Below, in pieces: positions 10,383 to 44,569 of a stretch of 64,000 bases of DNA. The stretch is from Eledone cirrhosa. Lineage: Eukaryota. The notes below the pieces were generated by a model that saw nothing but the letters and a program-made list of their open reading frames with translations, was not told where the DNA came from and ran no database searches. Made by a program: the position numbers and the translations under genes. Every line of letters starts with the position of its first letter. Position 1 is the stretch's first letter. The stretch lies in contig OZ024747.1 of the NCBI GenBank assembly GCA_964016885.1, positions 35,464,001-35,528,000 on the forward strand, given 5' to 3'.

Positions 10383-11161
10383 TGATATTTTAGTAAGTAA
10401 GTTAATTTTATAATATTCTTATTTTACGTCTCTCATATTATTGTTCTGCAACCCCATGCATTGAACCGCAAAGTTACTAAGACAAACCTATATATTTGCT
10501 AGCATTGATATGCATCTGTATGTATATATATGTCACTAGATATTAATTCTTTATATATATATATATATATATATATAAATACACATATAGAAAACTCTAT
10601 AGAACCATTCAGATAAATGTTGAATCATGAAATCGTGGAATTGCTCACATTTTAATATTCATTTCAATTTTAATATATATTTTAACACATACATATTCAC
10701 AGGGTTTACATGGGTTTCACAGACTCATAATTGCGAGAATGACCTAGGTAATTTTATACGTACTATCTTTGTTGCCGAAGTGTGTAGCTGGTTACTCCGA
10801 CATTAAACAAGGATTTATTAAATTAAGGGAGAGAAGAGAACCCAATCAATAAACTACCATGAATCCAGCACATATATGATTGATCGAATGCTAACAAACG
10901 CAAATAATGTTTGTACGTAACACATTGAAAACCTAATTAAAGTTTTTAATTTATGGTTTGCTTTTTGATATAATTAGGTAATGTAAACAACAGCCGATCT
11001 GCAACATTAACGATTTATACATTGAACAGAATTGAGAAAATGAATTTTAAAAAAATTGACTATGATGAACTGATATACACGGGAGTACCTAACTAGGTGT
11101 TACAGAAAGTAAGAGGGTCCGGAAAAAGAGGTGGCATATGTACTAAAAAAGCGTTACATTT

Positions 11162-14161: not shown

Positions 14162-15073
14162 TTATACTTCTCTTAGGTCAGTGTTGTTTGTTTGGGTGTT
14201 GTTGTTATTCAATTCATTCTTTCTGTTTAGCTTTGGTCTTCTAAATTCTATTTCACTGGCCTCTCTGATTTGGGTATCTGCTGGGTCATTTCTATGTTTA
14301 GATATTATTCTAATTTCTATGTTGTCTATGTTACCGTCATGTTGTTGTCTAGCATGTTCGTATAGTACTGACCCGTATTTTCGTCCTTTTAGTTCCCCCC
14401 AGTGTTGGTCTATCCTTTCACCCATGCTACGAGCTGTCTCACCTATGTATGTTGTTGTCATGTTTCTGCAAGTACCCTCTGTACATCTTATGCTATAGAC
14501 TACGTTTCTAGGTTTACAGTTTATCCGGGGGTTCACCTTACATATGATACATTTCCTATTGGTACAGTGGTTTTTCTTAAAAGGGTAGGTTTTGCTGGTC
14601 AGGGATTTTATGGTGGTTCCTGACTTTTTTACCACCTTTATTTTTAAGTGGGTCTTTCTCAGGGCCTTTCTACACTGGTTAGCTAATTTCCCTCCAGGGG
14701 TGGCGTCCACACACATGACACTCTGGTATCTCTTGTTGTCGTACCATGAGGTGGCTTTCCCTATCTTATGTCTAGCCCTATCTAAGCTATTCTTTGATTT
14801 GCTCCTGTATAATGGGCAAATTCCTTTCATGTCCTGTTCTATGAGGTTCTTATACATTTCCATGGCTCCTTCGCATACTCTGACTCTGTCTCTTTGGTTG
14901 TAGCCAGAGAACTGCATGCGGTTGATGAAGTGTTGGATGTGTCTTTCCATTTCTGTTGGGTCGCACATGCGGGACACATTCTTCATCACTCGTACCAAAT
15001 CTGCGATCAGAATATTAAACTTAGCACTACTGGACATTGCTGAGTTTTTGAGTATCAGGTATTTGGAGGCCAT
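14162..15073 (-). CDS. PLE C-terminal fragment with GIY-YIG endonuclease (open frame but truncated, not a host gene)
   Basis: VVY-x-YIG, conserved R, H, E and N residues of PLE GIY-YIG. Confidence 0.8.
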   Translation of the reverse strand: MASKYLILKNSAMSSSAKFNILIADLVRVMKNVSRMCDPTEMERHIQHFINRMQFSGYNQRDRVRVCEGAMEMYKNLIEQDMKGICPLYRSKSKNSLDRARHKIGKATSWYDNKRYQSVMCVDATPGGKLANQCRKALRKTHLKIKVVKKSGTTIKSLTSKTYPFKKNHCTNRKCIICKVNPRINCKPRNVVYSIRCTEGTCRNMTTTYIGETARSMGERIDQHWGELKGRKYGSVLYEHARQQHDGNIDNIEIRIISKHRNDPADTQIREASEIEFRRPKLNRKNELNNNNTQTNNTDLREV

Positions 15074-15489
15074 GGGTTTAGCATAGTGTGAGTGGGGGGA
15101 ACTAAAAGGACGAAAAAACGGGTCAGTACTATACGAACATGGTATTTAGATACATAGGACCACTTCATGGCACAGGCCGTTTTTTCTTTGGGGAGTGGTC
15201 AATTAGCCAGAGTGCTTTTTGAAATAAATAAATAAGTAAATAAATGTATAAATGAATAAATGAATAAATAAAAAATAAATAAATAAAAAAGTAATTCAAC
15301 AAATATATAGTAGGGAAATTTTTTAGGTGGGTTGGTAATAGAAATTAAACATTTAACAAGACCGAATCAAAGCACAGACTGGGGTGAGTGGTCAAGTTAA
15401 CATACAAGCACAGGTGGACAGAGTGTTTTTGTAGAATGGAAAGAATAAAATATATTTACATACTCACAACCACTTACAAAAACACTTAC

Positions 15490-23700: not shown

Positions 23701-25108
23701 GATTGTTGATGAAGCCCCATGGCTCATAAGACTGTTTTCGATGCTATTGCTCGAACTTTACAGGACATCACAGGTGTCAAGAGGACAATGGGTGGTATTA
23801 AAACTCTACTATCAAAGGACTTCCGTCAAAAGTTGCCCGTTGTCAAAAATGGAACAAGAGCAAACATTGTTGAAGCAAGTTTAAAGGAATCCTACCTTTG
23901 TAGATACGTATCTGTGAAGAAGCTGACAACAAATATGAGGGTTCATATGACTGGCGATTCAGATTCAGCAAACTTTTCGAACCTTCATACAATTGGAGAT
24001 GGTCAGCTCCCTTATGTAGAAGTATCTGATACAATTTTAGTTCCTGAAGAACTTAGAGAATGTGTTGAGAATCTAGAGGATTTGAAGGCAAAAGTGTATG
24101 CAGATTTAAGCTTGAATGGAAAACATCCACACTGGCTTGCTGAGCGAGCGATTATTTCTCCACTAAATGCCAATGTCAAGTTGAATAAATGACTAATGAG
24201 TGAATTTCCAGTGCAGGAAAAAGTGTACAAATCTATTGACACTATAACAAATGATAATGAAGCTGTACAGTATCCTACAGAGTTCTTGAATTCAATTGAG
24301 CTTTCTGGAATGCCTCCCCATCTTCTGAATGTTTAAAGTTGGTTGTCCGATCATGATTTTGAGATCATTGGACCCACCCCAAACAATAAATGGAACAAGA
24401 TGTGTTGTAACAAGATTGCATGAGAACTTGATTGAAGCAACCATTATATTCAGGGCTTACATAGGTCAAGCTCTTCTCATTCCGAGGATTCCACGTATAC
24501 CATGTGATAGCGAGTGCCTTTTACATTTAAGAGGCTGCAGTTCCCAGTGAGTCCATGCTTTGCCATGATAATCAATAAGAATCAAGGTCAAACTTTCAAA
24601 GCAATTGGTATAGATTTGACAAACCCATGTTTCAGTCATGGCATGTTTATGTGGCTGTTTCAAGGACTGGAACTTCAACAAATCTCTACATTTTTGCCAA
24701 TCAAAGAAATACAAGAAATGTTGTTTACCCTGAAGTTCTTCATTAGGACAAAGTAAGAAATATATTTTTATGTATTTATTGTTAAAAAATAAATAATGAA
24801 ATTTTTAATTTCTAATTTGGAAATAATGCTTTAAACAAAAATGAAATGATCAAGATTGGAATTGATATTTAAAAGAAAATTATTTACAAGAAACAAAATA
24901 AGAATAAGATTTAATAATGTAATTTTGATTTGACATATTACAAAAAAGAATGTTTTACAATTGTTCATGCATTACATTTTACATTGAATAATATTAAAAT
25001 GCAGAGTTTTCCTCCATAAATTATGACACTGATTTAAAACCAATCATCATTTTCTTATAAAGAAAAAAAAATGTTTGAAACGCAGCAACGCGCGGGAAAT
25101 TCGGCCAG
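20736..25108 (+). mobile_element. Helitron, degenerate RepHel (Zn finger, HUH Rep, PIF1 helicase)
   Basis: GESPGICCGNGKV, QGQIYHQLGSL, YFITMTCNPRWPE, IEYQKRGLPNAH, SIKYCIKY, RYVSSPEAAW, DAPGGTGKT, IVDEAP, DFRQKLPV, RLQFPVSPCFAMIINKNQGQT. 3' hairpin cgcagcaacgcgcgg then CCAG|T at 25105-25108. Many frameshifts. Confidence 0.95.
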
Positions 25109-25282
25109 TATGTATATATGTGATTGTGTATATATATATATATATATATTCAGGTTTGAGGTTCACCACTGGATAGAGCTGGTCAGTTCCGTATGGTCAA
25201 TCGCAATGTAATAATATAGAGAGTACTCAACGTAAAGCAGTTCAACCGTCTTTATTTTTGTAGTTGGTGGTGCTAATACGGA

Positions 25283-25341
<59 letters not shown>

Positions 25342-25344
<3 letters not shown>

Positions 25345-28300
25345 TTATCTATAAAAGGTAGATTTTTGTTGTTTGTATGTATGTTTCAATTTTATACATT
25401 TACACAATTCCAAAAATATTGAATGAATAATTAAGCAGAATGTTTACAAATATTCTAACTAGGATCATGGGCGAACTTATTGGGTAAAAAATGCCACAGT
25501 TACGGAAAAATTGATTTATTTCAACAATCGATGATTTCTCCTCTCTCATATGATATACGTTTCCTATATCTACTCCCTTCATCACCTCCCCTTAAAATTG
25601 CTACCTTCTCTTATAAGTGTTTGTGAAAAAGAGAAACATTGAAAACAAACATATACACACATATATGTGGGTGAATATACACACATATATGTTGGTATGG
25701 TTACGATTGACGTCATAGAAACAGGAACGCGGGAATTTCAATCAATAAACGCATTTGTTTTAGAAATAACAATAGCATATAATGATAAAGAGGGATATAA
25801 TGATAAAGAGGGAGTGAGAAACAAACAGATACACTAAAAGACGGATATATGTGTGTGTGTTTGTATTAGCGCGTTCAAACTCCATTTCGAAGCTGACTTT
25901 CATTTACTAAACTGTAAGTTTTTCAATCAGCCTTACACTTTCAAAATATATCTTTCTGTATAAGTAACTTTAACCCTTTATTTTCGACATAAAAATACAC
26001 ACATACATACAAATACCTGTAAATCTTTTTTTGGGGGTCTTTCTTATCAATCTTTTTACATTCAATTATCAGCCTTATACTTTCAAAGTCAATTTTTATG
26101 TTGAAGTAACTTTCACCCTTTATTTTTCGATACCCATTTACTTACTAACATTTGTATCACAACAACAATAACAATATTCATAAACAGACAGTAGACTTTC
26201 AAAGTCATTTTTTCTGTAGAAGTAACTTTCACCCTTTCTTTTGAAGATAAAATACCACCTAAAAAGAAAAGTCGCCTCAGTCGACATACTGCGTCAGCAG
26301 TGGCGCAAAAGGCGACTATAGCAAACGAGTCCTCTGAGGAAAATGCGCTTCAAGACTTTCACAGACAGCCTTACGTTCAGCAGAATGTCGAGCCGCTGAA
26401 AGTTTCCAACAGCGCACCGCACGCCTAGCCAAAATGGCTTCATACCAGGCTTCTTCCAGGGCTTCAGAGAGCCGTGAACAAAGGTCGAAGCGCCTGGCTA
26501 GAAACGATGCGACTAATGCTGCTTCCATGTCTTTGGAACGTTTAAAGCAACGGACGGCTCGCCTTCCTACGAACGCTGCGGCTATGACTACTTCCATGGC
26601 TTCTGAAGATGCAGACGGGCGGTCCATTAGCATTGCAAATGTTGCTTCTGCTATTGCTGCCAGACCTTCCCACCAACCACACGACCAATGTTCTACGTTC
26701 AAGCGTAACAGTCGACGGCGAGAAGCTGGACGCGGTGTGACGAGCCACAACAGCCCTTACTGGCACCTACGGGCTTTCAAGTATGAGCAAAACGTTAATT
26801 ACTCGATGCGCTCTGACATAAATATAGGCGAGATGATCTTCAATTGCCAATTCTACAATGCTACAAAGTGGGCTGGGGAGCCACCTGCAATGTGCTGCTT
26901 AAACGGTAAGGTCAACTTGCCCCCTCTTCCGGAACCGCATGAGCCTTTGAAGGAACTACTGACTGGTTATACCTCAATAAAAAACGCTCCTGGGGGTACC
27001 GGAAAAACTTTTGTAACAAATTTGATTCTCGCTAAGATTCGTCAGGAGAAAAAAGTTGCGTTGTCCGTTGCATCGTCCGGGATCGCTGCTACTTTGCTGC
27101 CGGGAGTCAGGATAGCACATTCAACATTTAAACTCCCTTTGGATTTAGTAAAAACTGAGACACCAACATGCAATATCAGCAAGAGTTCACACAAAGCTCT
27201 GGTTCTCAAAAGATGTTGCCTCATTGCACGATGGCAAACAACGGTGCCCTTGAGGCATTGGACAGGGACCGGAAAGACATTAGGGATTCTACGGCTCCTA
27301 TGGGTGGCGTAACCCTTCTGCTATCAGGGGATTTTCGGAAAACGCTGCCTGTCATCCCCAAATGGACAAGAGCTGATGAAGTGCGTGCCTGTCTTAAGTC
27401 GTCCATGTTGTGGCTCCAGGTGAATATTCGTGCTCATTTGCATGGTGACAACATGTCTGCAGCGCAGAACATTTTAGCGCTTGGTGAGGGCACGATCCCT
27501 GCGGATGACAAGGGCGGCATAGCAATCGACACCCTGTGCAACATTATGAGAAGCCCTTCTGACCTTTGGGAAGCAGTTTTTCCTAATGTCTCATCTAACT
27601 TTAAAAACCTCGATTGGCTCAGCGAAAGAGCCATCCTTGCTCCGAAAAATACCATGGTTAATTTTATTAACGAGCAGCTGATTGAGAAGATTCCCGGTAA
27701 AGAGCACATCTTCAAATCAGACCCCGACGATATCGTTAATTATCCGGTTGAGTTATTAAATCTCCTTGAGCCTCCAGGGCTCCCACGTCACATTAATAAG
27801 CTTAGGGTTGGCCTGTCCCATTATGCTAATAAGGAACTTGCGTCCACAAAAGCAGTGCAACGGTACACGCATGGTCGTCAAGTCACTGACACCCACTTGA
27901 TTGAGGCCACCATTGTAACGGGGTGCGGAAGAGGGGAGAATGTTTTCATTCCAAGGATGAACCTTTTCCCCTCGGCGTCAGATATCCCGTTCGATTTCCG
28001 GCGATCCCAATTCCCGGTGAGACTATGTTTTGCCATGTCCATTAACAAGTCACAAGGGCAAACATTGTCAGTGGCGGGCATCCATTTGGGGGAGCCATGC
28101 TTCTCCCATGGACAACTTTATGTTGCCAGTTCCCGCGCAGGGATCAGGAATGGACTTTTTGCTTACTCTCCTCAAGGGATGACACGCAATATCGTCTACA
28201 AAGAGGTGCTATAGATGTTGGTGCAGGTGTTGGAGCTATGCCGTCTGGAACACAATTTCCTGGTAGGGTATCCCATGGCGGACAGATCTGACACCCAGCG

Positions 28301-28528
28301 GCATCAGGGCCACCATCTTGCAACTTTGGTCTACTAAATTCGGTATTGGAAGATTATTAACCCATCATTGATTGACCAAAATGCTAATTGGTTCGTAACT
28401 TTTAATAACGGGGTCAATTGCTTTATGCACTTAATTGATAAGCTTATTCGCTTTCAAACCACGTATAAATGTATGTAACTTTTCATAGCAAATGAACAAA
28501 CCCGAACAACGCCGGGCTAAACTGCTAG
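25342..28528 (+). mobile_element. Helitron with both termini and an internal deletion of the Rep domain
   Basis: 5' TC after A in (TA)n; 3' hairpin cccgaacaacgccggg and CTAG|T. Coding region 26260-28214 has an R-rich N-terminus, GEPPAMCCLNGKV joined directly to APGGTGKT, and PIF1 motifs GDFRK, QFPVRLCFAMSINKSQGQT, FSHGQLYVA. Confidence 0.95.
26434..28214 (+). pseudogene. Helitron Zn-finger and PIF1 helicase reading frames (frameshifted near 27225)
   Basis: ORFs 26434-27312 and 27168-28214 together carry the helicase motifs. Confidence 0.85.
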
Positions 28529-28561
<33 letters not shown>

Positions 28562-28607
28562 AGATAAAATAAATAAGTCAAATGTTTAAAATTTAGCTTC
28601 GTTTATT

Positions 28608-28662
28608 ACTGCTATATATATTTCGGTGACAGCCATCTTTGGCTGTGACCTCTTCAGGCAGT
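28608..28662 (-). ncRNA. Type I hammerhead
   Basis: actgc CTGAAGA ggtcacagcc-aaagat-ggctgtcacc GAAA tatata TA gcagt. Confidence 0.85.
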
Positions 28663-28882
28663 CCGAATTAGTGTGGTATAGACAAGTACATATATTGTTG
28701 AGATGTATAACCTTGTCAATACTCTGATAGGTCCAGTTCCTGGTTGGGTTGTTATTTCACTGAGGAAGTGGAATCATTTCCTCAGTGAAATAACATCCTA
28801 ACCAGGTACTGGGCATATCAAAGTATTGACAAGGTTATACACCTCAACAACATATGTACTTGTCTATACCACACTAATTCGG

Positions 28883-28937
28883 ACTGCCTGAAGAGGTCAC
28901 CGCCAAAGATGGCTGTCACCGAAATATATATAGCAGT
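28883..28937 (+). ncRNA. Type I hammerhead
   Basis: actgc CTGAAGA ggtcaccgcc-aaagat-ggctgtcacc GAAA tatata TA gcagt. Confidence 0.85.
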
Positions 28938-29075
28938 AATAAACGATGCAAAATTTAAAACATTTGACTTATTTATTTATCTTATTTTACATTACTCCGG
29001 AGTAACCAAACCAACCTGCGCACTTCGTCGAATCTAGATACTAATGTGTTGGTATACAACAAACATATACTCAAT

Positions 29076-29144
<69 letters not shown>

Positions 29145-29148
<4 letters not shown>

Positions 29149-29312
29149 AACGAGTAGGACCCCGACGGCTAATTCAGTCCAGAGTCAGCCGTCGAAACGG
29201 CTTGAGCTCAGCCGTCGGTGTCCTACTCGTTCCTATTACCCACTCTACTACCCTAAGTATTGAGTACTTTGGTGCGTTATGGTCCACCTGGTTCCTTACC
29301 GCATTTCCTTCG

Positions 29313-29316
<4 letters not shown>
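29145..29316 (+). mobile_element. Short fold-back PLE terminus containing the 3' half of a hammerhead
   Basis: gacggct..agccgtc GAAA cggcttgagctcagccg TC ggtgtcc. The CUGANGA part is replaced by an inverted copy of the downstream sequence. Confidence 0.65.
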
Positions 29317-29377
<61 letters not shown>

Positions 29378-29382
<5 letters not shown>

Positions 29383-29602
29383 ATACTTGGGAAGGGTTAT
29401 ATTTGTGTAATAATATTGCCAGAATTAATAACAGAACAAACTCACTGTTTGGTTGGTTTTCGCTTCTGTGTCTTTTATATCGGTTAATCTAATTTATTCG
29501 GTCCTCAATGTTGCCATTGACTGACCAACGGTCAAAAATACAGATACAAACACATACATATAGTCTATAAAAGTTCTTTCGTTGCACATCTGCAACATCG
29601 TT
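29378..29602 (-). mobile_element. Fragment of the Nematis-like pseudo-LTR
   Basis: Colinear with 13679-13915; ends inside the HHR. Confidence 0.85.
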
Positions 29603-30510
29603 GTCCCTTCATTTCCACCCTCACCTTTCTTACAGGCCCTAACGGGTCTTTCCTGTCCGCCACTCTTTCACCTGCACATCCACCGACGTTATCTATGCCC
29701 TCCGGTGTTCCCTTTGTAGGTCTTTATATATCGGACAAACGGGACGCCGCATGGCGGACCGTTTTGCCGAACATTTGAGGGACATACGACTCGGTTTGAA
29801 TACTCCTGTCGCCCGTCATTTCTGTTCTCGTGGTCATTCTTCCCTACATGTTTCAGTCCTGGGTGTCCTGTTTCAGACCTCGCGCACCTGGTCTGAACAA
29901 AGTCTGAGTCACCGCCTTGGGTCCTATACCCCTCTTAGACTCAACTCACCTCCACAATTTCTCTAATACCCCGTCCATTATCACACCCCTAGATTCCTAT
30001 CATTAACATCTTCTCTGACAACTAATACAGGCCGACTTTTCCATTCACTGCTATGTATAAACATATACAAACCCTTTCGTACTTACATGCACACACACTA
30101 TATTACTCACATATACACACACATTTATTCTTAGCTTCCTACACACACACACACACACACACACACATGCTTATGCACGTGCACAAGTGTGGCTCATTTT
30201 ACAAAACGTTTTTTTTTGCATTCCGTGTAGACGCGCTCCATCATCAACTTTTCTAAAAAATAAATCATACACAAAACGCCAGCACCAATAGTTTTGCAAG
30301 AGATAACTTGACCAGTTATTTTTATCTAAAGACATTTTTTCCACTTCCAACTCGCCCGTCCCTCAATCTATCTTATTTCCCATTCTTTCTTCTGATGAAG
30401 GACTAGCGTCCGAAACGTTAAGACCCTCCTTCTGCTATATCAAGCGTTAACCTAATATATCCCTTCCTTATACACTACCGATTGTGTTGTTATTTCCGTT
30501 TACCTTTTAC
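29603..30510 (+). mobile_element. Penelope-like element (Neptune-like) 3' fragment: GIY-YIG and pseudo-LTR
   Basis: FTCTSTDVIYALRCSLCRSLYIGQTGRRMADRFAEHL..PVARHF..EQ..LG..P.RLN; HHR at 30388. Confidence 0.9.
30388..30423 (+). ncRNA. Minimal type I hammerhead of the classic Penelope type
   Basis: tctt CTGATGA a ggac-tagc-gtcc GAAA cg TT aaga. Confidence 0.85.
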
Positions 30511-30613
30511 ATACATACATACATACATACACATATATATATATATATATATAAAATATTAAAAAAATAATGAATAAACAAAGAAACAGTTCCTTATATT
30601 AAACAAAAAAAGT

Positions 30614-30754
30614 TCATTATTTTACGATCGTTTCTAGGACATATATGTGTTAGAATTGGTATGCATATTCAAAAGATCTATGTACAAAATTATACAAACT
30701 ATCAAAGAGAATATACATACCTTCACATATATATGCTGTCTTCAGAAATAATGA
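30614..30754 (-). ncRNA. Type I hammerhead with about 100-nt stem II region (inverted copy)
   Basis: Reverse complement of 37938-38078. Confidence 0.7.
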
Positions 30755-31002
30755 TGTATATTTATTGATAATAACAACAATTCAAAATTACAGGTCTGTT
30801 TGGGAACAGATTTTAAATAGACCAATGAAATACATAAAAATTCATCAAGAAAATACAGTTAGGTGTGTGTATATATGTATGTAAATCCGTTCACGGATGT
30901 GCATAAACATGTATGTTCATATGTATACGTATGTTGAAAAAGTGTATGTAAACATAAAAATTTAGGGCTAATGTATCTGTATGTTTACAATCTACAGACA
31001 GA

Positions 31003-31041
<39 letters not shown>

Positions 31042-31602
31042 TATATGTATACACATACACATACACACACATATATATACATACACACACACACACATAT
31101 ATACACATACACACACACACACATACGTATATATTATTATTATAACTATATGGATATTGAGGCGCTCACATAAACACGCCCACAGACACTTACATTTAGA
31201 TGCAGAAGTTAAGGAGGTAAGGGAGTAAGTAATTAAAGCAGTGTCAATCTCAACATACTTATAAAAATGTATCCATACAGTTAGAAATAAAAAAAATGTT
31301 CATAGAAGGAAAAAACTCAAACTCAAAAAAATATATATATATATATAAAAAGGGGGGGGGGGTACGTACATACATAGACGCGAATGTCTCACAAAAGAAA
31401 TATAAAAAAAAACATAAAAAAACATAAAAGAGAGACATAAAATATACATGCTTATATACATACGCACATTTACACATCCGTACGTTCGATACATACATAC
31501 GTACACACACACACATACACATACTTAACCTCACGCATATTAACCTGTTTGTATGCATACACATAAAAATAAGTAAAACATATACCCATACATATAAATA
31601 CA

Positions 31603-31642
<40 letters not shown>

Positions 31643-31646
31643 CACT

Positions 31647-31692
<46 letters not shown>

Positions 31693-31833
31693 TATATATA
31701 TATATACACATACATATATATACATATATACATACATATATATATATATATATACACATACACACACATACCCATGTATATATACACAACCACACACACA
31801 CACACACTCAGACATACATATATATAGAGACAT

Positions 31834-31876
<43 letters not shown>

Positions 31877-31961
31877 CACACAGTCAGACACATATGCACA
31901 CATATACACATACATACACACATCTCTACAAATACATATACATACACATACATACATACAC

Positions 31962-32021
<60 letters not shown>

Positions 32022-32246
32022 TCATACACACACATTTACATGCGCACATATGTATTTTTATACTCACATACAAACACACAAACATACATACACACTTACA
32101 TACACATACATACATCCACGCTTACAAATACAAATAATTATTGGGGGGGGGGATTACAATTATTAGTGGGAAATAGTAAATATATAGGTTTCAAGGAACA
32201 TAGAATATTAATCTGCAGTTAAATCATTATATGTGTTTACATAGTA

Positions 32247-34159
32247 CAAATCCTTCTATAAGACTTATATGTCAAATCCTTCTATAAGACTTATATGTCC
32301 ATCCAAATCGGATATTGGAATAATTAGCAAAAAACTTTTAGATAGAGTCATCCCACAAATAAGAAAACATGTTAATTTACCACTCTGGGAAAACACTTCC
32401 CAGGTAATTAACTGGTTTAATATTAGATGTAAATCTTCTGCTTCATTTCTACAATTTGATATAGATAATTACTATTCTTCTATATCACCTATACTCCTGA
32501 ACAAAGCTTTGATATTTGCTAAAAATAGATCTAACTTAACTTTGGATGACATTAATATTATTACACATGCTAGACTAACACTTATTGAATTTCAGAATGA
32601 ATACTGGACCAGAAACACATATAGTAATCTATTTGATATTACTATGGGTTCAAGCGATTCTGCCCAAATTACTGATCTTGTGGGCCTCTTTCTTCTTTTT
32701 AACATAAATGCTTCCTTTCCCCACCTTAAAGGTGGTTTATATCGTGATGACTATCTTCTTCTTTCCAACAACATTAGCCTCTCAGGAATAGAAAAAAAAC
32801 AAAAAGCTTATTAGAACTTTCCTTAAAGACTATTATAGTCTTGATATTACTTTTGAAAACACAAGTAAAGTAGTTAATTTCCTAGATATAACTTTAGACT
32901 TGGCTACGGGTATCTACCAACCTTACCATAAACCCAACCAAAACTTACACTACATACACTCACAATCTAATCACCCTAAATCTATCCTTAAAAACCTTGC
33001 ATATAATATATCACTTAGAATTTCCAACCTTTCGTCTAACCAAGATGTATTTGATAAAAATGAGACCTTCTATAACGAAGCTCTAGATAGAAGTGACCAC
33101 AAAAATAGATTGGAATATATACCTTCTACTAATAACACTATAAACATACAACCTAATATTACCAACAAACACCAAATGAAAAGTACACACCTAAATGCCA
33201 CTCACACTATACCCCAAAATACCAACATAAAACCAAATTTCTCCAACTCCTCTAATATAAAGTATAGTAACTCTCAAAAAACTACTCATCATACAACTCT
33301 AATAAATGTTAATAATAAAACTCCTAATAAACAAGCTAAAACACCTAAATCAATAAATCTAACTAAAAATGTGCGTGGTGAGGTCATTAACATTAATCCT
33401 CCTAGTAAACATCAGGATGCATCCTATAAAAACAATAAACAACATAGAAACCGTAATAGACGAGTTACTTGGTATAATGCTCCATTTAATTTACAAATTA
33501 AGGATAATATACCTAAAACAATTTTTAATATCCTAAAGAAAAACTGCCCGCCAAACCACAAATACCATCAAATCTTAAATAGATCAACAGTTAAATTCTC
33601 ATACTCAACAACCAAAAACATAAAACAAAATATAAGTGCCTATAATGCATATAAATGTAAAAAAACCATAAGTATACCACCAATACATCAAACTAACCAT
33701 AATATCTCCTCAAATACAGAATTAACGAAAGGTTGTAACTGTAGAAACAAGGCAAACTGCCCATTAAAAGGAAATTGTCTTGTTAACAACATAGTTTATA
33801 AATGTAAAGTTAAAACTAAGGATTCTATTTGCTCGTATATAGGAGCTACTTCTAACAATTTTAAGGTAAGGTTTAATACCCACAAACATAGTTTTAAAAA
33901 TGCCGCACTGGCTAATACAACATCTCTAGCAGAAAAAATTAATAGTTATAGAAATAAGAATATATAATATGATATGACCTGGAGTGTGCTCAAAAGAGCC
34001 ACCCCTTATCAAAATAATAGAAATGAATGTAAATTGTGTTCCCAAGAACTATTTGAAATAATGAAATCTAAGGATATCCTATTAAATAAGCGACAGGAAT
34101 TAATTATATCGTGTAATCATAAACTGAGAAAAACATTTAAATATTATAAACCTAATTAA
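32247..34159 (+). pseudogene. PLE RT-GIY-YIG ORF, 5'-truncated, with a frameshift and a stop
   Basis: ORFs 32269-32814, 32900-33967 and 33974-34159 are consecutive pieces of one protein. Confidence 0.9.
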
Positions 34160-35030
34160 TAATATATATTTTAGAAATTAATATATAAATTAATTTTAAT
34201 GTAGTTAACCTATAATTTTAATTTAATTAAAATTCTACTACAGATGAAATTAAAAAATATCGTATAATCATAAACTGTGAAAAACATTTAAATATTATTA
34301 ACATAATTAATATATAATTTGGAAATTAATATATAGATTAATTTTAGTTTATTTAACCTATTATTAAAAAAATTTTTTACAGATGAAATACAACAAAATA
34401 TCGTGTAATTAATAACGGAGAAATACTTTTTAATATTATAAACCTAATTAATATACAATTTAGAAATTAATATATAAATTAATTTTAATTTAGTTAACCT
34501 ATAATTTTAATTTAGTTAGCTGATAATTAAAATTCTAATACAGATGGATTGCAGAATATCGTGTAATCATAAACTGAGAAAAACTTTTAAATATATACCT
34601 ACTTAATATACACTTTACAAATTAATATATAGATTAATTTTAATTTAGTTAACCTATAATTAAAATTCTACTATAGATAAAATACAAAATTTTTCTTTAA
34701 TTATTATAAACCTAATTAACATATACTATAGAAATTAATATATAATTTTTAATTTAGTTAACCTATAATTAATATTCTACTACCGATGAATTACTTAATT
34801 TGGCTTTCCCATTACAACATTCATTTCCTAAAATTGATACCATCATGTTAATATATGTAATTATTTTTAATTTGGTTATGATATAATTAATACTCTACTA
34901 CTGCTGTTAAACTTCAAAATTCCGCTTTAAATATTATAAACCTAAGTAGTATACACCTTAGAAATTAATATATTAACTATTTTTATTTTAGTTAACCTAT
35001 AATTAATATTCTACTTATATTAAAATACAT
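34105..35030 (+). repeat. Degenerate tandem array (about 140-160 bp units) derived from the end of the PLE ORF
   Basis: atatcgtgtaatcataaactgagaaaaacatttaaatattataaacctaattaa..ttagttaacctataatt recurs about six times. Confidence 0.8.
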
Positions 35031-35742
35031 AATTTAGCCTTCTTTCTTACAAATACCATTTCCTAAAACTGATACAACTATGTAAACACATATTATGATT
35101 TAACTGCAGATTAATATTCTATGTTCCTTGAAACCTATATATTTACTATTTCCCACTAATAATTTTAATCCCCCCCCCCCCCAATAATTATTTGTATTTG
35201 TAAGCGTGGATGTATGGATGTGTATGTAAGTGTGTATGTATGTTTGTGTGTTTGTATGTGTGTATAAAAATACATATGTGCGCATGTATTTGTGTGTGTA
35301 CTATGTAAACACATATAATGATTTAACTGCAGATTAATATTCTATGTTCCTTGAAACCTATATATTTACTATTTCCCACTAATAATTTTAATGCCCCTCC
35401 CCCCCCAATAATTATTTGTATTTGTAAGCGTGGATGTATGTATGTGTATGTAAGTGTGTATGTATGTTTGTGTGTTTGTATGTGAGTATAAAAATACATA
35501 TGTGCGCATGTAAATGTGTGTGTATGAGTGTATATAAATATATATATATATGTATATATATGTGTATGTATGTATTTGTAGAGATGTGTGTATGTATGTG
35601 TATATGTGTGCATATGTGTCTGACTGTGTGTATTTATATATATATATATATATGTGTGTATGTATGTCTCTATATATATGTATGTCTGAGTGTGTGTGTG
35701 TGTGTGGTTGTGTATATATACATGGGTATGTGTGTGTATGTG

Positions 35743-35773
<31 letters not shown>

Positions 35774-35949
35774 ATATGTATATATATGTATGTGTATATA
35801 TATATATATATATATGTGTGTGTTTATATATATATATGTGTGTGTGTGTATGTATATATATATATATATATATAAAAGACGTAAAATAAGAAAATATTTT
35901 TAAAAAAAATGTTTAAAAGATTTTTTTTTACTTACTTACTTAAATTTTC

Positions 35950-36031
35950 ACTCCAACTAATTAGTTTCTGCAATGGGATAAAGACAGTTACGTAATCCAA
36001 CTGTCGAGAATTCATTGCGTCATCAGGGAGT
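35950..36031 (-). ncRNA. Type I hammerhead, family B
   Basis: actcc CTGATGA cgcaatg..cattgca GAAA ctaattag TT ggagt. Confidence 0.8.
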
Positions 36032-36797
36032 CTATTCTCAGCTAAGTCTCCAGGCAATGCGCGGACACTGGCGGCTCATATAAAAATAATAATAATTCGG
36101 TAGATAGAACAGCTGGCGAGGACTGGATTCTATGTACTGAAATTCTCACTGCTTCTAGTCAAATGGCCGATTCTAAAGAATCAATCACGTGACACAGAGG
36201 CTAGTTAGAAGGAATGGGATGGTAAGATGACTGACGCCTACTGATGACGCAATGAATTCTCGACAGTTGGATTACATAACTGTCTTTATCCCATTGCAGA
36301 AACTAATTAGTTGGAGTGAAAATTTAAGTAGGTAAGCAAAAAAAAATTTTTAAACATTTAAAAAAAAAATATTTTCTTATTTTACGTCTTTTATATTATT
36401 GTTCTGCATCCTCCTGCATTGAACCACCTAGGTACTATGACATAACCTGTGTATTTGCTGGCATGGGCGTGCATCTGTGCGCTTATGTTAGTTGATATAT
36501 TAAATTAACTATATTTATCTCCAAATCACAGATTTGACGAGCAAACCTGCCAAAACCACTTCTAAAAAAAATTGTTTGGGGGTGTTAGTAGGCGTCAGTC
36601 ATCTTACCATCCCATTCCTTCTAAATATCCTCTGTGTCACGTGATTGATTCTTTAGAATCGGCCATTTGACTAGAAGCAGTGAGAATTTCAGTACATAGA
36701 ATCCAGTCCTCGCCAGCTGTTCTATCTACCGAATTATTATTATTTTTATATGAGCCGCCAGTGTCCGCGCATTGCCTGGAGACATAGCTGAGAATAG

Positions 36798-36879
36798 ACT
36801 CCCTGATGACGCAATGAATTCTCGACAGTTGGATTACGTAACTGTCTTTATCCCATTGCAGAAACTAATTAGTTGGAGT
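36798..36879 (+). ncRNA. Type I hammerhead, family B (an upstream tandem copy at 36241-36317 lacks its 5' stem I strand)
   Basis: actcc CTGATGA cgcaatg..cattgca GAAA ctaattag TT ggagt. Confidence 0.8.
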
Positions 36880-37071
36880 GAAAATTTAAGTAAGTAAGTA
36901 AAAAAAAAAATTTTTTTAATTTTTTTAAAAAAATATTTTCTTATTTTACGTCTTTTATATTATTGTTCTGCATCCTCCTGCATTGAACCACCTAGGTACT
37001 ATGACATAACATGTGTATTTGCTGGCATGGGCGTGCATCTGTGCGCTTATGTTAGTTGATATATTAAATTA

Positions 37072-37107
<36 letters not shown>

Positions 37108-37570
37108 TGTATTTATATGTATGGGTATATGTTTTACTTATTTTTATGTGTATGCATACAAACAGGTTAATATGCGTGAGGTTAAGTATGTGTATGTGTG
37201 TGTGTGTACGTATGTATGTATCGAACGTACGGATGTGTAAATGTGCGTATGTATATAAGCATGTATATTTTATGTCTCTCTTTTATGTTTTTTTTTATAT
37301 TTCTTTTGTGAGACATTCGCGTCTATGTATGTACGTACCCCCCCCCCCTTTATATATTTTTTTTTTATTTTTGAGATTTTTCCTTCTCTAAAAAAATTTT
37401 TTTATTTCTAACTTTATGGATACGTTTTTATAAGTATGTTGAGATTGACACTTTGCTTTAATTACTTACTCCCTTACCTCCTTTACTTCTGCATCTAAAT
37501 GTAAGTGTGTGTGGGCGTGTTTATGTGAGCGCCTCAATATCCATATAGTTATAATAATAATATATACGTA

Positions 37571-37613
<43 letters not shown>

Positions 37614-37650
37614 ATATATATGTGTGTGCATGTGTATGTGTATACATATA

Positions 37651-37689
<39 letters not shown>

Positions 37690-37937
37690 TCTGTCTGTAG
37701 ATTGTAAACATACAGATACATTAGCCCTAAATGTTTATGTTTACATACACTTTTTCAACATACGTATACATATGAACATACATTTTTATGCACATCCGTG
37801 AACGGATTTACATACATATATACACACACCTAACTGTATTTTCTTGATGAATTTTTATGTATTTCATTGGTCTATTTAAAATCTGTTCCCAAACAGACCT
37901 GTAATTTTGAATTGTTGTTATTATCAATAAATATACA

Positions 37938-38078
37938 TCATTATTTCTGAAGACAGCATATATATGAGAAGGTATGTATATTCTCTTTGATAGTTTGTAT
38001 AATTTTGTACATAGATCTTTTGAATATGCATACCAATTCTAACACATATATGTCCTAGAAACGATCGTAAAATAATGA
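37938..38078 (+). ncRNA. Type I hammerhead with 9-bp stem I and about 100-nt stem II region
   Basis: tcattattt CTGAAGA cagcatatat...catatatgtccta GAAA cgatcg TA aaataatga. Confidence 0.7.
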
Positions 38079-38272
38079 ACTTTTTTGGTTTAATATAAGG
38101 AACTATTTCTTTGTTTATTCATTATTTTTTTAATATTTTATCTTGACTCTGTATTCCGTTTATCTTTCACCGAAAGTGAATTTTGAATGCATCTCTTCTT
38201 TTCATGATATCCGGATTACATTGAGTTCTTCATACGGATTGGACACTACCGTAAACTTTTGGTAGATTTATC

Positions 38273-38304
<32 letters not shown>

Positions 38305-38309
<5 letters not shown>

Positions 38310-38475
38310 CAAGGCTCTGATACCATCAACACCATAAACACAGAGCTGGCATATCTAAGAACTGACTAACTGCCTGATGAGGTCATAGCCATTCAATAGC
38401 TATCATCGAAATATGAATAGCAGTAAATAAAGGATTATGAGTTCATGCAATTGACTTATGTTTCGTCACTATACA
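38305..38475 (+). mobile_element. PLE terminus fragment with a hammerhead motif at 38369-38424
   Basis: actgc CTGATGA ggtcatagc..gctatcatc GAAA tatgaa TA gcagt; matches 19640-19797. Confidence 0.75.
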
Positions 38476-38699
38476 TATATATATGCTATATACATGAGAG
38501 ATGAATATATAGTTTATGTTCCCATCGTGATTTCTGTGAGTTAGAAATAATACTAAGACATTGATAACCATGTACTTCATTAATTCTATGACGGCAATTA
38601 AGAATAACGGTTGCATTTGAATATGAAATGCAGCTCTTCTGGTTAATTGCTTCCTTAATTTCATTGACTTTACTAAGAATATTTATCTTCATTATTTAA

Positions 38700-38775
38700 T
38701 ACGGGGTCGATAAAATAAAGTACCAGTAATACACTGGGTATTTGCTGGCCTTGTGCCAAAACTAGAGACACTTAT
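38700..38775 (+). mobile_element. 5'-truncated SINE S1
   Basis: 3' half of S1; ttatttaata is repeated on both sides. Confidence 0.85.
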
Positions 38776-38784
38776 TTAATATTA

Positions 38785-41700
38785 TTATGTGTGATGGTTG
38801 TAAAAGTATGGCGATGTTGTCTGGTGGTTTTGGTGGTTGCGACATATTTGCAAGGTCGAATTTTACGATGGATTACAGGTTAAAATGTGACATAGGGAAC
38901 ACGGGGTACTGGACTGAGGGGTGGTCGAGGTATGGCGATGTGTTTGGTGGTGGTGGTGGGGGTGATTTGTTCGACATCATATTTACAGGATCGGATTTTA
39001 CGATGGGTTACAAGCTAATACCTGACAGAGAAGACACATAGAACACAATATATTGAGATGAAGGGTGTATGGCGATGTGTTTGTTGTTGGTGGTGGTGGT
39101 GGTGTTGGGGGTGAAGTGTGCGACATGATATTTATAACATCTGATCTTACCATGGGTTACATGTTATAGAAGAGAAATATATTGAGATGAGGGACGGTGT
39201 GGCAAAGCAAAGGTGGTTATCCCTATATTGGGTCAGGGTTAGTGTTTGGCCCTCGGCCGAATGTTTGTGCAGAGAAGATGGTCATTCTGGTGTATCTGAA
39301 GTTTATAATGTCAGATCTTGAGTTTATGGCCAATTTCAATTTAATGATCTCAGCCGCTTCGGCCAGGCATAATCTGCAGTGATTTTGTTGTTGGGGAGAT
39401 GTGTTTACACGTCTTTTAACTGACCACTTGATCTGGTATTCCATGTTCTTGTCTTTGACGTTCCAGATCAAGTCCGCCAGTTTTGTTTGGGATCGTTTGG
39501 GCCTGCGTTTGAAGGAACTTTTGTGGTTATATCAGCGTTCTTTAAACGTAGTCGATGTCGCCCCTATATAGGAGTACTCTTTTTGGCCCGCTGTGACATC
39601 GCACCGGTAAATAATGTTTTTAACGAGGCACTACTCCTCTTTTAGTGGGCATTCTACACGCTTTTGCAGTTGGAGTTGGGGGTTATGGGTTTGTTGCCAC
39701 ATTGCCGGTTGTTCGTATTCTGTGTCGAGCTGGCCTGTAGGTTGCTGTGTTGTATTTTGTGTGTGGTTTCGTTCTGGGTTGTGCTAGTGGTTGGTTGTAG
39801 TCCTATCATGTGTTTGCGTCATTTTGTCGTATTTGCGTGTGCTATCGTGTCGCCTAGATTTGGTGTTGTGGAGAAGGAGAATTTGACAGTGTGTCTGTTA
39901 AAGAGCTTGTGGTATTTATGTGTGTGTTGGGGGGATTGTTCAAAAGCTCTGAAGAAGGTTCCCGGTATATTGGAGGTTATGTGTATAGAGTACGGGACGT
40001 TGTACTATATACACTGCTTCGGGCTTTACGGTGTTTAGTGTGGTTGTTGTAGTTTGGTGGTTGCGTGGGTGCGTTTTGGTCAGGCGTATTTGAAATGGGG
40101 GTTCTTACTATTCTATTGCCGTTAAATCTCGGGTCTCTATTACTACGTAGTCGCGTCCGATATTCAGTCCTTAATGGGCTTGGAGGGTATAGATTTATCT
40201 CGATGGCAGTTGTGTGTAACGCTGCATTCCCTGTCGGCTAAGTGTGGTCTTTGCTTAGTATGTGTTCGAGGTGGGGTATCCTCGTCTATTTGCGTTTCTA
40301 AGGGTCTGTTTGGATTTAGCGGCGTTGTGGTTCTAGTTTGGTTATTGTAAGTTATCTTCTCATTGTACCCAGCATTTTAAAGTGCGGATTTATAGTATTC
40401 CCTGCGCTGGTTGAAGATAGTTCTGTTCACTGACAGGGTTGACACTCTGTAGGAAACACTTTTAACTATTGAGTTAATTATGCTCCTAGGGTGGTTGGAG
40501 TGTATGTTGACATATTCAGGTTTTCGTTGGTTTTATGGTATGGCCGGTAGAGACCTCTGCCTAATTCTAATGTGACGTCTAAGAAGTTTACTGTCCTACT
40601 TTGGGGTTCTATTTCTACCGCTAATCCTTAGGTCTGAAAGATATATCTAAGTCGTTTGTGTAGTCTATCTAATTGGCTATTATTGTGTCCGCGGGCCATG
40701 AGTAGGAAGTCGTCCCGGTACAAGCCTCCGCTCATGGTGGGGATCTCATCCGTTATTATATTTAGGAGGTATAGGCCTACTACATCAGTAACCTGTCCGA
40801 ATCACTAGACCCCATATTAATGTCGAAACCATCTGGTCTATTTTGTCGTTCCCAACATTTTATCGTAAAATTCTAGTCAAGTTTTCCTAGCTACTAGCAT
40901 GATGTCTACCTCCATTCTGGTGAAGATTGATCTGTTCATGGCTGAGAACAGTGCCTTGTTTAGGATGACCGGGGATATAGAGGCGTAGTAGTTCGCAATG
41001 TCCATTTGGAATAATCGAACATCCTACTTGGTTTCAATGCCGGAGAACCAGTCGATTACCTCCTTTGTACAGGACCAGGCTGAGTTTTGTCCTATTTCTT
41101 ATTTCTGGTATTACCCAGTCAATGATGCATTTGCTTAGTCTACCTAGGCCTGATGTAGAGGGAGCTATGAGTCCGACCGCTAGTTTGGACTGAAAGACCG
41201 GTTTATGATCCTTAATTGATATCCTCGGTGTCCTAGGGTTGTATGGTTGTGTCTTGTCGTCTATGGTCAGTGCTGTCATTTCGTTTTTGCCTGTTTGTTT
41301 ATGTGTGCTAGGTTTTCCCGTGTTGATGTTTTGTATATTTCAGCTATTTCGTTTGTGATGCATTTCTTGTAGGTTTTGTACTCCAAATTATAGATATTTC
41401 CGGTCTTATCCGCCGGTACGATGATGCCAGGACTTTTCCTGGACTTCTTTACGGTGGATACTGTCCAGACAGGAATGCACTTCTGAAAGGATTTCGCGGA
41501 GATTTTCTAAATTTAATACTCTGGACCATGGTAATAATCCTGTCCTCAAACTACTCTAGGAGTGGGTTGTGCGGTGGGGTTTTCCTCGATTTGAATAGTC
41601 TTTTCAGGTGGTTGGTGGAATTGTCGTCGGATCCAGGGGCACTCCTGTTGTTGTAGTGGTAGGCACTCCACCGGACCCTTCTAATGAACATGTTATCTAT

Positions 41701-41880
41701 ATATATACATATTTCCAAATGATAAGGTATGGTTTTCATGGGTATGTCTCTATTTATTAAACAAACTTTTTATTTTATCTGATGAAAGCGTACCAATGTG
41801 TCTTGGTACCCTTGAAATATATATAATAATATAAATATGGTTTTATAAATATATTTTCCATTTCTTTAATATCATTGAGT
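38785..41880 (-). mobile_element. Penelope-like element (Hydra-like), near-full ORF but degenerate, with an inverted pseudo-LTR piece at the 5' side
   Basis: RRVRWSAYHY, IVPADKTGNIY, PRISIKDHK, LIAPSTSGLG, QMDIANYYASI, GLYRDDF, NFLDV, YSYIGATSTTFKER, KWSV, CRLCLAE. 3' tandem repeats at 38800-39200. Confidence 0.9.
41775..41829 (+). ncRNA. Type I hammerhead in the inverted pseudo-LTR
   Basis: ttat CTGATGA aagcgtaccaa-tgtgtc-ttggtaccctt GAAA tatata TA ataa. Confidence 0.8.
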
Positions 41881-41891
41881 ATATATATATA

Positions 41892-42032: not shown

Positions 42033-42471
42033 CTTCTAGTGTGTCAATGCTTTCACCCTTAACGGGATCTTCTGAAACTAAAAAAGTCAACCTGTGAATG
42101 TAGAAGTAAATATTTAAAAAAAGTTTGCGACCGAAGGAAGACAGGAAGACGATACATTGGTTCGTGGAAACGTTCCCTGGCAAAGAACGGAAGATAAACG
42201 AAAAAAGAAACGAGGATAATACGTCATTATTTGGTGCAGTGCAAACAATTACACGCGAAGACAAAACCACGTTTATGGTATAAATGAAGTCGTAGACTAA
42301 TATTCTTTTAGGTGATTCATGGAGACGTTCTCTGGCAATGAACGGAAAAAACGAAGATAATACGTCATAATGTGGAGCATAATATTTTAATAAATACGGT
42401 TCTTATATATCTGATATGTATTTATCCTTATCGAGCCCTATTTGGATTTTAGTCTTCAAATTTATTATTAT

Positions 42472-42525
<54 letters not shown>

Positions 42526-42910
42526 GTTAACATATACATAATGTTATAGATATATACATGTTGCAACTGGTCACTTTTAAGCTCTATGAAAAATTAATAA
42601 ATTAAAAAATCAGAGCAATATATCATAAATCATGTCTTTAGAATCATCAGATAATAAAATATATACTATTTCTTCTCCTAATTAGCATAATTAATGATAT
42701 AAAAAAATCAATTAGAACAAGCTATAAGAATAAATGCTATTATGGGGAAATCTCCGACAAATAACCGAACGCAGCCTCTTCGCGGCGGCCTCAATCGAGT
42801 ATTTATCCAAAATATCGACAGCATGTAGAAACTGACTAAATATACCATCTACCATACACAATTAGGTGTAAAATTAAACTTAGAAGAAATGCGCACATAC
42901 CGTAATTATA

Positions 42911-42985
42911 GCTCTACCATGGTTTCTTCCTTATTTTTAGACATCCAAATAATAGGAATGTCCTGAGTTAGGATTCATCAGGAGA
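42911..42985 (-). ncRNA. Type I hammerhead, family D (copy 1)
   Basis: tctc CTGATGA atcct..aggaa GAAA ccatgg TA gagc. Confidence 0.7.
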
Positions 42986-43575
42986 CAAACTCAAAATCAG
43001 ACATCTAGTTTTTCAATCCGATCCCGCCAAAAATTGATTAAAAAATGGCTAAGAATCGCTATGTGGCTTTGGTCAAGCCAGAAAGAAAAAAATGTGATTG
43101 GTTGCTTACGGCGGGTAGGCTTGCTGCTAGAAAGCGCAGCCAAATATCGCCAAATTTCATCTCAACCTATTGGGAGATTATTAAATATAAAGGTTAACAT
43201 ATAAATAAAGTTATAGATATATACATGTTGCAACTGGTCACTTTTAAGCTCTATGAAGAGATAATAAATTAAAAAATCAGAGCAATATATCATAAATCAT
43301 GTCTTTAGAATCATCAGATAATAAAATATATACTATTTCTTCTCCTAATTAGCATAATTAACCATATAAAAATCAATTAGAACAAGCTATAAGAATAAAT
43401 GCTCTTATGGGGAAATCTCCGACAAATAACCGAACGTAGCCTCTTCGCGGCGGCCTCAATCGAGTATTTATCCAACATTTCGACAGCATGTAGAAACTGA
43501 CTAAATATACCATCAACCATACACAATTAGATGTAAAATTAAACTTAGAGGAAATGCGCACATACCGTAAGTATA

Positions 43576-43650
43576 TCTCTACCATGGTTTCTTCCTTATT
43601 TTTAGACATCCAAATAATAGGAATGTCCTGAGGTAGGATTCATCAGGAGA
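43576..43650 (-). ncRNA. Type I hammerhead, family D (copy 2)
   Basis: tctc CTGATGA atcct..aggaa GAAA ccatgg TA gaga. Confidence 0.75.
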
Positions 43651-44185
43651 CAAACTCAAAATCAGACATCTAGATTTTCAATCCGATCCCGCCAAAAGTT
43701 GATTCAAAAATGGCTAAGAATCGCTATGTGGCTACGTTCGGTTATTTGTCGGAGAAATCCCCATAACAGCATTTATTCTTATAGCTTGTTCTAATTGATT
43801 TTTTATATGGTTAATTATGCTAATTAGGAGAAGAAATAGTATATATTTTACTATCTGATGATTCTAAAGACATGATTTATGATATATTGCTCTGATTTTT
43901 TAATTTATTAAATTCTTCATAGAGCTTAAAAGTGACCAGTTGCAACATGTATATATCTATAACTTTTTTTATATGTTAACCTTTATATTTAATAATCTCC
44001 CAATAGGTTGAGATTAAATTTGGGATATTTGGCTGCGCTTTCTAGTAGCAAGCCTACCCGCCGTAAGCAACCAATCAGATTCTTTCTTTCTGGCTTGACC
44101 AAAGTCACATAGCGATTCTTAGCCATTGTTGAATCAATTTTTGGCGGGATCGGATTGAAAAACTAGATCTCTGATTTTGAGTTTG

Positions 44186-44260
44186 TCTCCTGATGAATCC
44201 TAACTCAGGACATTCCTATTATTTGGATGTCTAAAAATAAGGAAGAAACCATGGTAGAGA
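44186..44260 (+). ncRNA. Type I hammerhead, family D (copy 3)
   Basis: tctc CTGATGA atcctaactcaggacattcc..ggatgtc..aggaa GAAA ccatgg TA gaga. Confidence 0.75.
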
Positions 44261-44569
44261 TATACTTACGGTATGTGCGCATTTCTTCTAAGTTTAATTT
44301 TGCACCTAATTGTGTATGGTTGATGGTATATTTAGTCAGTTTCTACATGCTGTCGAAATGTTGGATAAATACTCGATTGAGGCCGCCGCGAAGAGGCTAC
44401 GTTCGGTTATTTGTCGGAGATTTCCCCATAAGAGCATTTATTCTTATAGCTTGTTCTAATTGATTTTTTATATGGTTAATTATGCTAATTAGGAGAAGAA
44501 ATAGTATATATTTTATTATCTGATGATTCTAAAGACATGATTTATGATATATTTATATATATATATATA

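Follow-up and report, generated by a model that had tools for sequence, protein, structure and literature searches.

How does a repeat of about 560 nt that carries a hammerhead ribozyme and has no ORF come to be copied and inserted, and what does the copying? The question is raised by positions 35870-37078 of the window, by which we mean the whole 64,000-nt stretch of Eledone cirrhosa DNA that was analysed. The answer we favor, and consider probable, is that the repeat is a non-autonomous PLE of the Hydra clade, which a Hydra RT-endonuclease would copy in trans by nicking both strands of its target and priming once at each of two sites. Copies of the repeat enter (TA)n at one or the other of these, site A (about 84 nt past the predicted ribozyme cut) or site B (about 200 nt past it), which lie about 115 nt apart and are both TA-like in the RNA. 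The features of the window on which the argument turns are these:

7139-7890, no strand: second member of the family, 87% identical, head-to-head, B end left and A end right
9567-10552, no strand: third, diverged member, about 70-75% identical, head-to-head, A end left and B end right
30512-38277, plus strand: the host, a frameshifted Hydra-clade PLE copy, with ORF pieces at 32245-33967 and an inverted arm at 30512-32248
31617-31636, minus strand: empty target, an unbroken TA tract within the host Hydra element's own inverted arm, its flanks 95.8% and 87% identical to both sides of the insertion
35743-35874, no strand: left TA tract, target
35870-36243, minus strand: inverted arm, a 5'-truncated copy 97% identical to 36587-36956, ending at site A in the TA tract (end typed A)
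35950-36031, minus strand: whole type I hammerhead carried by the inverted arm (core 36026), predicted cut after 35955
36241-37078, plus strand: forward arm, 1.5 units of 562 nt, with its site B end in the TA tract
36241-36317, plus strand: broken hammerhead, with core and stems II and III kept and the 5' strand of stem I missing at the inversion junction
36313-36874, plus strand: one 562-nt unit from cut site to cut site, without an ORF, fold z -2.58
36401-36424, plus strand: bulged hairpin 4 nt 3' of site A (36396, read through)
36518-36542, plus strand: bulged hairpin 3 nt 3' of site B (36514, read through)
36798-36879, plus strand: whole type I hammerhead (core 36803), predicted cut after 36874
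36961-37078, plus strand: tail, from site A (36960) to site B, on the forward arm only
37075-37102, no strand: right TA tract, target

An earlier note on this DNA had described the locus as a tandem of 562-nt units with one hammerhead per unit. The plus-strand cores at 36241 and 36803, their 562-nt spacing, the predicted cuts after 36312 and 36874 and the continuation of the unit's 3' end into its own start were all reproduced, as was the lack of an ORF, the longest ATG-started frame over the natural dimer being 27 aa. The layout is a different one. Positions 35870-37078 are a single insertion, flanked by two TA tracts, that breaks a TA tract within the 3' region of the host Hydra-clade PLE, and because 35870-36243 is an inverted copy of 36587-36956 the locus consists of an inverted arm head-to-head with 1.5 forward units, and not of a plain tandem. 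The inversion junction coincides with the opening base of the core box at 36241; stem I has lost its 5' strand there, which leaves the first hammerhead broken, and the rule of one hammerhead per unit does not hold here. Under a strict pattern, among 60 unbiased loci (those of contig 1 that come first, each a distinct site), at least two consecutive cores occur in only 12, one core in 38 and none in 10; the two successive whole ribozymes expected of a non-LTR retrozyme are lacking at 35870-37078, where the first is broken, and found in 12 of the 60. In principle, the first site could still be cut by way of the intact core and a 562-nt product released, because the published dimer model allows an intact core to cut the first site (PMC4209133). 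The second insertion placed at 7140-7888 is present, but its arms are head-to-head and not in tandem. A third copy, arms set head-to-head, 3' ends fixed at two points, membership of the Hydra clade and an empty site in the window had no place in that first reading, whose observation is partly confirmed and whose interpretation is partly supported.

The ribozyme is a type I hammerhead with a 5-bp stem I, a branched 6-bp stem II with an inner hairpin, a palindromic stem III, a C-A mismatch at 10.1/11.1 and a GUU triplet. Core and stems are identical in 71 of 79 segments from the 38 best-hit loci, the other eight being the broken copy at 36241, six with substitutions and one clipped by the edge of its locus. 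RNAalifold recovers the three stems unaided from 12 copies of several subfamilies, and two pairs in each of stems I and II are altered on both sides, with 16 such cells against 5.1 in shuffles, a comparison that carries the tool's caveat on relatedness. Rfam at its gathering threshold had no match within the window, and the hammerhead is called because of its core boxes, its three stems and these compensatory changes. To judge by this pattern of change, the ribozyme stems are under selection. The 10.1/11.1 mismatch, the U at the cut and the palindromic stem III are common among the Hydra hammerheads, and the same C-A mismatch occurs in one plant PLE entry, in the available part of the published set (PMC8557442, File S2).

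In the 3.0-Gb genome an 18-mer that crosses the cut site is matched exactly 12,272 times and its reversed control not once, so the hammerhead repeat is not a product of chance; a 41-mer of the young subfamily has 3,184 exact matches, again with none in its reversed control. Units measure 471-571 nt (n=52) with a GC content of 37%, arms reach about four units, and the subfamilies, from about 70 to 97% identical, include several that retain the same short unit, the young one diverging by 0-1% outside homopolymers. The body of the repeat holds putative promoter-like boxes. The repeat is also present in four contig runs from three organisms, at very low depth in two, which has no bearing on RNA.

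A rival reading makes the repeat no more than a pseudo-LTR, or 3' end, belonging to an autonomous PLE outside our sample, each copy being a fresh dead-end truncation. The anatomy of the ends is exactly that of PLE insertions, and with six Hydra families sampled the 27,000-41,000 candidates of the protein search leave room for others. Hundreds of read-throughs, however, continue from site B across a body of 280 nt and return to the hammerhead, at a point where the ORF would begin in an autonomous element. A tblastn screen with Hydra and DKS-type proteins found an ORF between repeats at none of 80 loci (one set of 60, 20 of them covered for only 1.5 kb on each side, and another of 20), so that no copy among the 80 is the pseudo-LTR of a contiguous RT ORF; no same-strand spacing of 2.5-7 kb occurs among the first 100 matches listed for either pattern; and the short unit persists across several subfamilies. 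We regard truncation of an autonomous parent as a very improbable account of the family. The part of the first interpretation that these data support is its proposal that the hammerhead repeat has no ORF, is amplified independently and owes its mobilisation to (TA)n-targeting PLEs.

The strongest regularity lies in the ends. Every one of the 82 two-armed insertions with both ends typed has one A end and one B end (20 of 20 among the 38 best-hit loci, 28 of 28 among the 60 unbiased loci, where one script-called A+A was re-read as a miscall, 24 of 24 among 27 cut-site loci and 10 of 10 among 20 loci), and the same holds for autonomous Hydra-G (13 of 13) and Hydra-H (8 of 8; 20 loci). The inner junctions of the two-armed insertions vary. 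The stretch from A to B is the PLE tail, a feature described as 30-40 bp long and "often at only one end" (PMC8557442, PMC3846280) and linked in vitro to two RT start sites (PMC11167929), as far as the available text of these papers goes; here it is one-sided in 82 of 82 insertions and, at about 115 nt, longer than published. Partial tandems, 5' truncation and an inverted 5' arm are further features of PLE insertions found in the 560-nt family, and the (TA)n target, with its empty site in the window, is that of the Hydra clade.

Several Hydra families with long open frames (821, 830, 823 and 758 aa) reside in the genome, and the helper candidates among them carry the RW[KRT], DKT and CxCx5C marks, while the 560-nt family itself has no ORF. 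Pfam gave no informative match for nine ORF pieces of the window; the clade was assigned from motifs. A metagenome scan returned no Hydra elements from outside. Hydra-B (window 30512-38277; L153-L155), the family of the host of our insertion, has an 830-aa open frame, a unit of about 6.7 kb, a microsatellite-rich 3' region and a tail of about 135 nt whose hairpin loop contains an insert of 61 nt; a motif scan found no hammerhead in it, though one is said to be present in every Hydra element. Hydra-G has a hammerhead-like motif in which, by eye, an A replaces core U4 (L203:1340-1390; window 42050-42085), and at L224:214-5625 three near-identical head-to-head Hydra-G insertions follow one another at intervals of 1.84 kb, the TA spacer recurring with them, from local duplication or repeated copying.

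Other families occur beside these. A second ORF-less hammerhead family, C (window 42520-44553), has a unit of about 667 nt, head-to-head arms, A and B ends in TA and a hairpin at both sites. A third hammerhead family, D (window 28545-29100 and 38306-38472), is also head-to-head and shows by eye a short unbulged palindrome after its first end, and family E (window 41760-41882; L164, L172, L099) combines a hammerhead with a Hydra-A-like stem I and a site-A hairpin. A 311-nt tandem hammerhead family at L178:1380-2960 has different end signals and probably serves another PLE clade. The DKS-type PLE (window 14162-15145; L225, L226) is abundant, encodes 1,217 aa with an Asn-rich insert, targets TA and has a 60-nt tail inside its ORF start; no hammerhead was found in it by motif scan. 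Degenerate helicase/Rep-like ORF pieces at window 21654-28214 and 62227-63522 resemble Helitron remnants.

What might an RT recognize at two sites in an RNA of this size? One to nine nucleotides after site A there is a hairpin with a lower stem of 3-4 bp, an upper one of 2-6 bp and a 2-nt 3' bulge whose first base is nearly always U. It follows site A in 135 of 136 and in 16 of 16 read-throughs of the 560-nt family, in Hydra-A (24/25), -B (4/4), -C (4/4), -D (14/15) and -G (22/32), in families C (3/3) and E (2/4) and in the L181 family (1/1). At site B it is found in 126 of 131 and 11 of 14 read-throughs of the 560-nt family, in family C (2/2) and in Hydra-A (22/24), and it was not found in Hydra-B (0/4), -C (0/4) or -D (0/5); the DKS-type PLE has it in none of 5 read-throughs at site A and none of 4 at site B. 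The rule was derived from five of the families before scoring, and by background the hairpin occurs at 4.9-6.1% of positions in the bodies of autonomous elements and at 12.6% and 26.8% in two short families whose sequence includes the sites. True read-throughs were missed by the anchors of families D and I, as they were at site B in family E and Hydra-G, and those counts decide nothing. Both Hydra-H sites have the hairpin by eye, as seen after the rule was drawn. Among six published Hydra consensus sequences, taken from the available supplement of PMC8557442 and judged by eye, the hairpin is clear near the termini of three from coral and sea cucumber (Hydra-2_Amil, Hydra-1_Ajap, where it occurs twice, and Hydra-2_Ajap), partial in Hydra-1_Amil and Hydra-1_Crog, and not seen in the octopus consensus Hydra-1_Obim. 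Upper-stem sequence varies between families with pairing kept; within the 560-nt family the stems are almost invariant and the loops variable, and because the stems hardly vary the family's hairpins yield no covariation. A shuffle of pairs across families (43 of 44 against 30.7) was discarded as support because the finder had itself demanded pairing, which makes it circular. We propose the hairpin as a predicted RNA signal.

Which Hydra family supplies the enzyme is a separate matter from descent. Hydra-A, -B, -C and -D and the DKS-type PLE were ruled out as direct parents of the 560-nt repeat, blastn having found no match to any of them, and Hydra-G was ruled out by eye on its differing hammerhead and tail. 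No autonomous element carrying the family's hammerhead or body was found among the six Hydra families sampled, and descent from a Hydra pseudo-LTR is for that reason only a possibility. As a helper, Hydra-H is the likeliest candidate. It is a very young family, with 40 scored 3' ends at about 100% identity and ORFs of 611-782 aa in four of four copies, and measured between like anchors its tail is 112 nt long, against 113-115 nt in the 560-nt family. A site-B flank pattern retrieved, among the first 100 matches listed, four Hydra-H copies, the remainder being of the 560-nt family, and no third family. Short site-B flanks are the sequence seen to be shared by the two, and their hammerheads differ. 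By eye, that of Hydra-H (L290:4600-4720) seems to hold a long structured insert in stem III.

At C1:89.30 Mb, an arm of the 560-nt family with an A end is joined head-to-head, without TA, to a truncated Hydra-H arm with a B end. This is a single locus, and the chimera could reflect a later deletion; as it stands, it means that the two arms of an insertion need not derive from one RNA. A second junction, with Hydra-G (L203), has B+B ends and was not counted as partner evidence. Its existence does add to the grounds for supposing that the helper is another Hydra family, or several, or even the co-resident 1,217-aa DKS-type PLE, which also ends in (TA)n. The site-A hairpin is common to all the Hydra families tested, so that cross-mobilisation is possible, Hydra-A has the hairpin at both sites, and older subfamilies may have used different helpers. 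Set against this, the tails of Hydra-A (about 91 nt), -B (135), -D (69) and -G (87) fit less well than that of Hydra-H, and the DKS-type PLE has a 60-nt tail without such a hairpin. We consider a helper other than Hydra-H unlikely.

If a hammerhead is retained under selection, is it used? Three of 89 arms have the predicted cut as their exact starting point. Across the genome such a start is found in 30 matches from 27 loci, whereas offset -2 gives 7 and offset +2 gives 8 (binomial p 4e-5), an enrichment of about 3.6-fold given by patterns that skip junctions with TA tracts and by offset controls that are not exactly matched. In 10 of the 27 loci both arms end at the cut, separated by 0-2 extra A; among these ten, one has only a 22-nt inverted arm and another is short by a base. 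A broad excess of arm starts at unit positions 1-56 (29 of 89) was set aside because the choice of query and artefacts at A/T runs bias such counts. The cut-site starts are what would be expected of cDNA running off at a ribozyme-made 5' end, and the copies likely point to occasional ribozyme cutting in the cell, while loss of a palindrome centre could mimic the symmetric junctions.

Cut-site junctions nonetheless make up well under 1% of sites (27 counted junction loci against 12,272 intact sites), nearly all arms crossing the cut, and the usual template must thus have been uncut or re-ligated. A re-ligated template would suit the reading as a classical circular retrozyme, whose tandem transcripts would be cut efficiently to 560-nt monomers and ligated, the circle then serving as the usual template for rolling-circle RT that leaves tandem arms. 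Arms of up to about four units suit such a template, as do the selected ribozyme stems and the neighbouring units of diverged subfamilies, which often resemble one another more than they do any other locus in the sample. Uncut multimeric transcripts, however, account for the same facts; the hammerhead is of the PLE type, reported as weak in vitro (PMC4209133), and eight of nine frog dimers stayed uncut (bioRxiv 10.64898/2026.07.22.740005), in the portions of these reports available. Identity within arrays is moreover flat when compared with identity between loci, with 14 of 55 pairs closer, 31 equal and 10 farther, in a test whose second segment was spoiled by truncated arms. A circle as the usual template is possible, if distinctly the less probable view; it is compatible with our explanation and differs from it in the form of the template alone.

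The explanation that we prefer, copying in trans by a Hydra enzyme, accounts for these observed genomic products in the following way. An RNA made from the putative promoter would be multimeric, circular or re-ligated, and a dimer of the Hydra RT-endonuclease would bind it at the two bulged hairpins 3' of sites A and B. Both (TA)n strands would then be nicked, and each 3' end would pair with the TA-like bases at A or at B. Two cDNAs would extend upstream, usually through the ribozyme, and join head-to-head; where the second arm failed, a plain 5'-truncated copy would result, and where the template had occasionally been cut by its ribozyme beforehand, the cDNAs would stop at the cut. A wider proposal, tentative though not far from evenly balanced in our judgment, is that Hydra elements from coral to this genome mark the RT start with one conserved hairpin, that an asymmetric dimer primes A on one TA strand and B on the other, that a 560-nt RNA with two hairpins hijacks Hydra-H without sharing its sequence, and that its copies record in a genome, for the first time, the cutting of a PLE hammerhead in vivo.

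Taken simply as one more retrozyme family, found in a new host, the repeat would be ordinary. Animal retrozymes are already described as non-autonomous PLE derivatives with consensus lengths of 51-972 bp (bioRxiv 10.64898/2026.07.22.740005, available text), so neither the class nor the size is new, and a unit of 471-571 nt is not, as the earlier note supposed, larger than the known ones. The main interest lies in the mechanistic rules, of which three can be tested: each insertion has one A and one B end, the start site has a hairpin immediately 3' of it, and cDNAs may stop where the ribozyme cuts. Inverted arms, one-sided tails and the role of the hammerhead are stated as open questions for PLEs in the accessible text of PMC8557442, PMC11167929 and PMC4209133. 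PLEs are the sister group of telomerase, and the 560-nt family reduces the RNA they need to 560 nt, with Hydra-H, young and with long ORFs, named as a candidate helper for reconstitution. The literature at our disposal, which took in few subscription papers and neither Repbase nor Dfam, gave in its available text no account of Hydra families that are non-autonomous, nor of the A+B rule, the hairpin or junctions at the cut site, and these last three appear to be unreported. The words "ribozyme" and "hammerhead" are absent from the available text of PMC13282606.

As far as DNA can show, then, the family is a real non-autonomous element with a PLE-type hammerhead, resembling the non-LTR retrozymes. 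With those of metazoans (Cervera and de la Pena 2020, PMC7229834; Li, Clavereau and Pollet 2026, bioRxiv 10.64898/2026.07.22.740005) it shares an ORF-less unit, a type I hammerhead, an organization from monomers to short multimers and a proposed dependence on PLEs for mobilisation, a likeness drawn from DNA alone. It differs from them in that its hammerhead is of the PLE type and not canonical, its insertions are mostly dispersed and head-to-head, and no matching pseudo-LTR was found. In the available text of these studies no cephalopod stands among the genomes and the anatomy of the ends is not described.

The likeness to autonomous Hydra-clade PLEs, known from an octopus among other hosts (Craig et al. 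2021, PMC8557442), is closer: the (TA)n target, the core-adjacent mismatch, the palindromic stem III, partial tandems, an inverted 5'-truncated arm and a tail at one end only are common to both. The 560-nt family differs in having no ORF and in its tail of about 115 nt (69-135 nt in the Hydra families here), against a published 30-40 bp; the accessible supplement table lists no non-autonomous Hydra family, and the accessible text describes no hairpin signal. Non-autonomous Chlamys elements such as MRC1, as described in the available text of the same paper, are likewise non-autonomous PLEs with head-to-tail multicopy insertions, but they share 3' sequence with autonomous families and have no canonical hammerheads.

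The most instructive parallel is PAc, the Poseidon PLE of Anolis (Frangieh et al. 2024, PMC11167929), for which the available text reports two internal RT start sites that bound the tail, cutting and extension of both target strands, a predicted dimer and no need for ribozyme cutting. In PAc the start site is reported to be non-homologous to the target and to lie in an AC-rich stem-loop, and no reads end at the cut; in the 560-nt family, in contrast, both sites are TA-like and are followed by the hairpin, a two-armed insertion uses each of them once, and the cut is where some copies stop.
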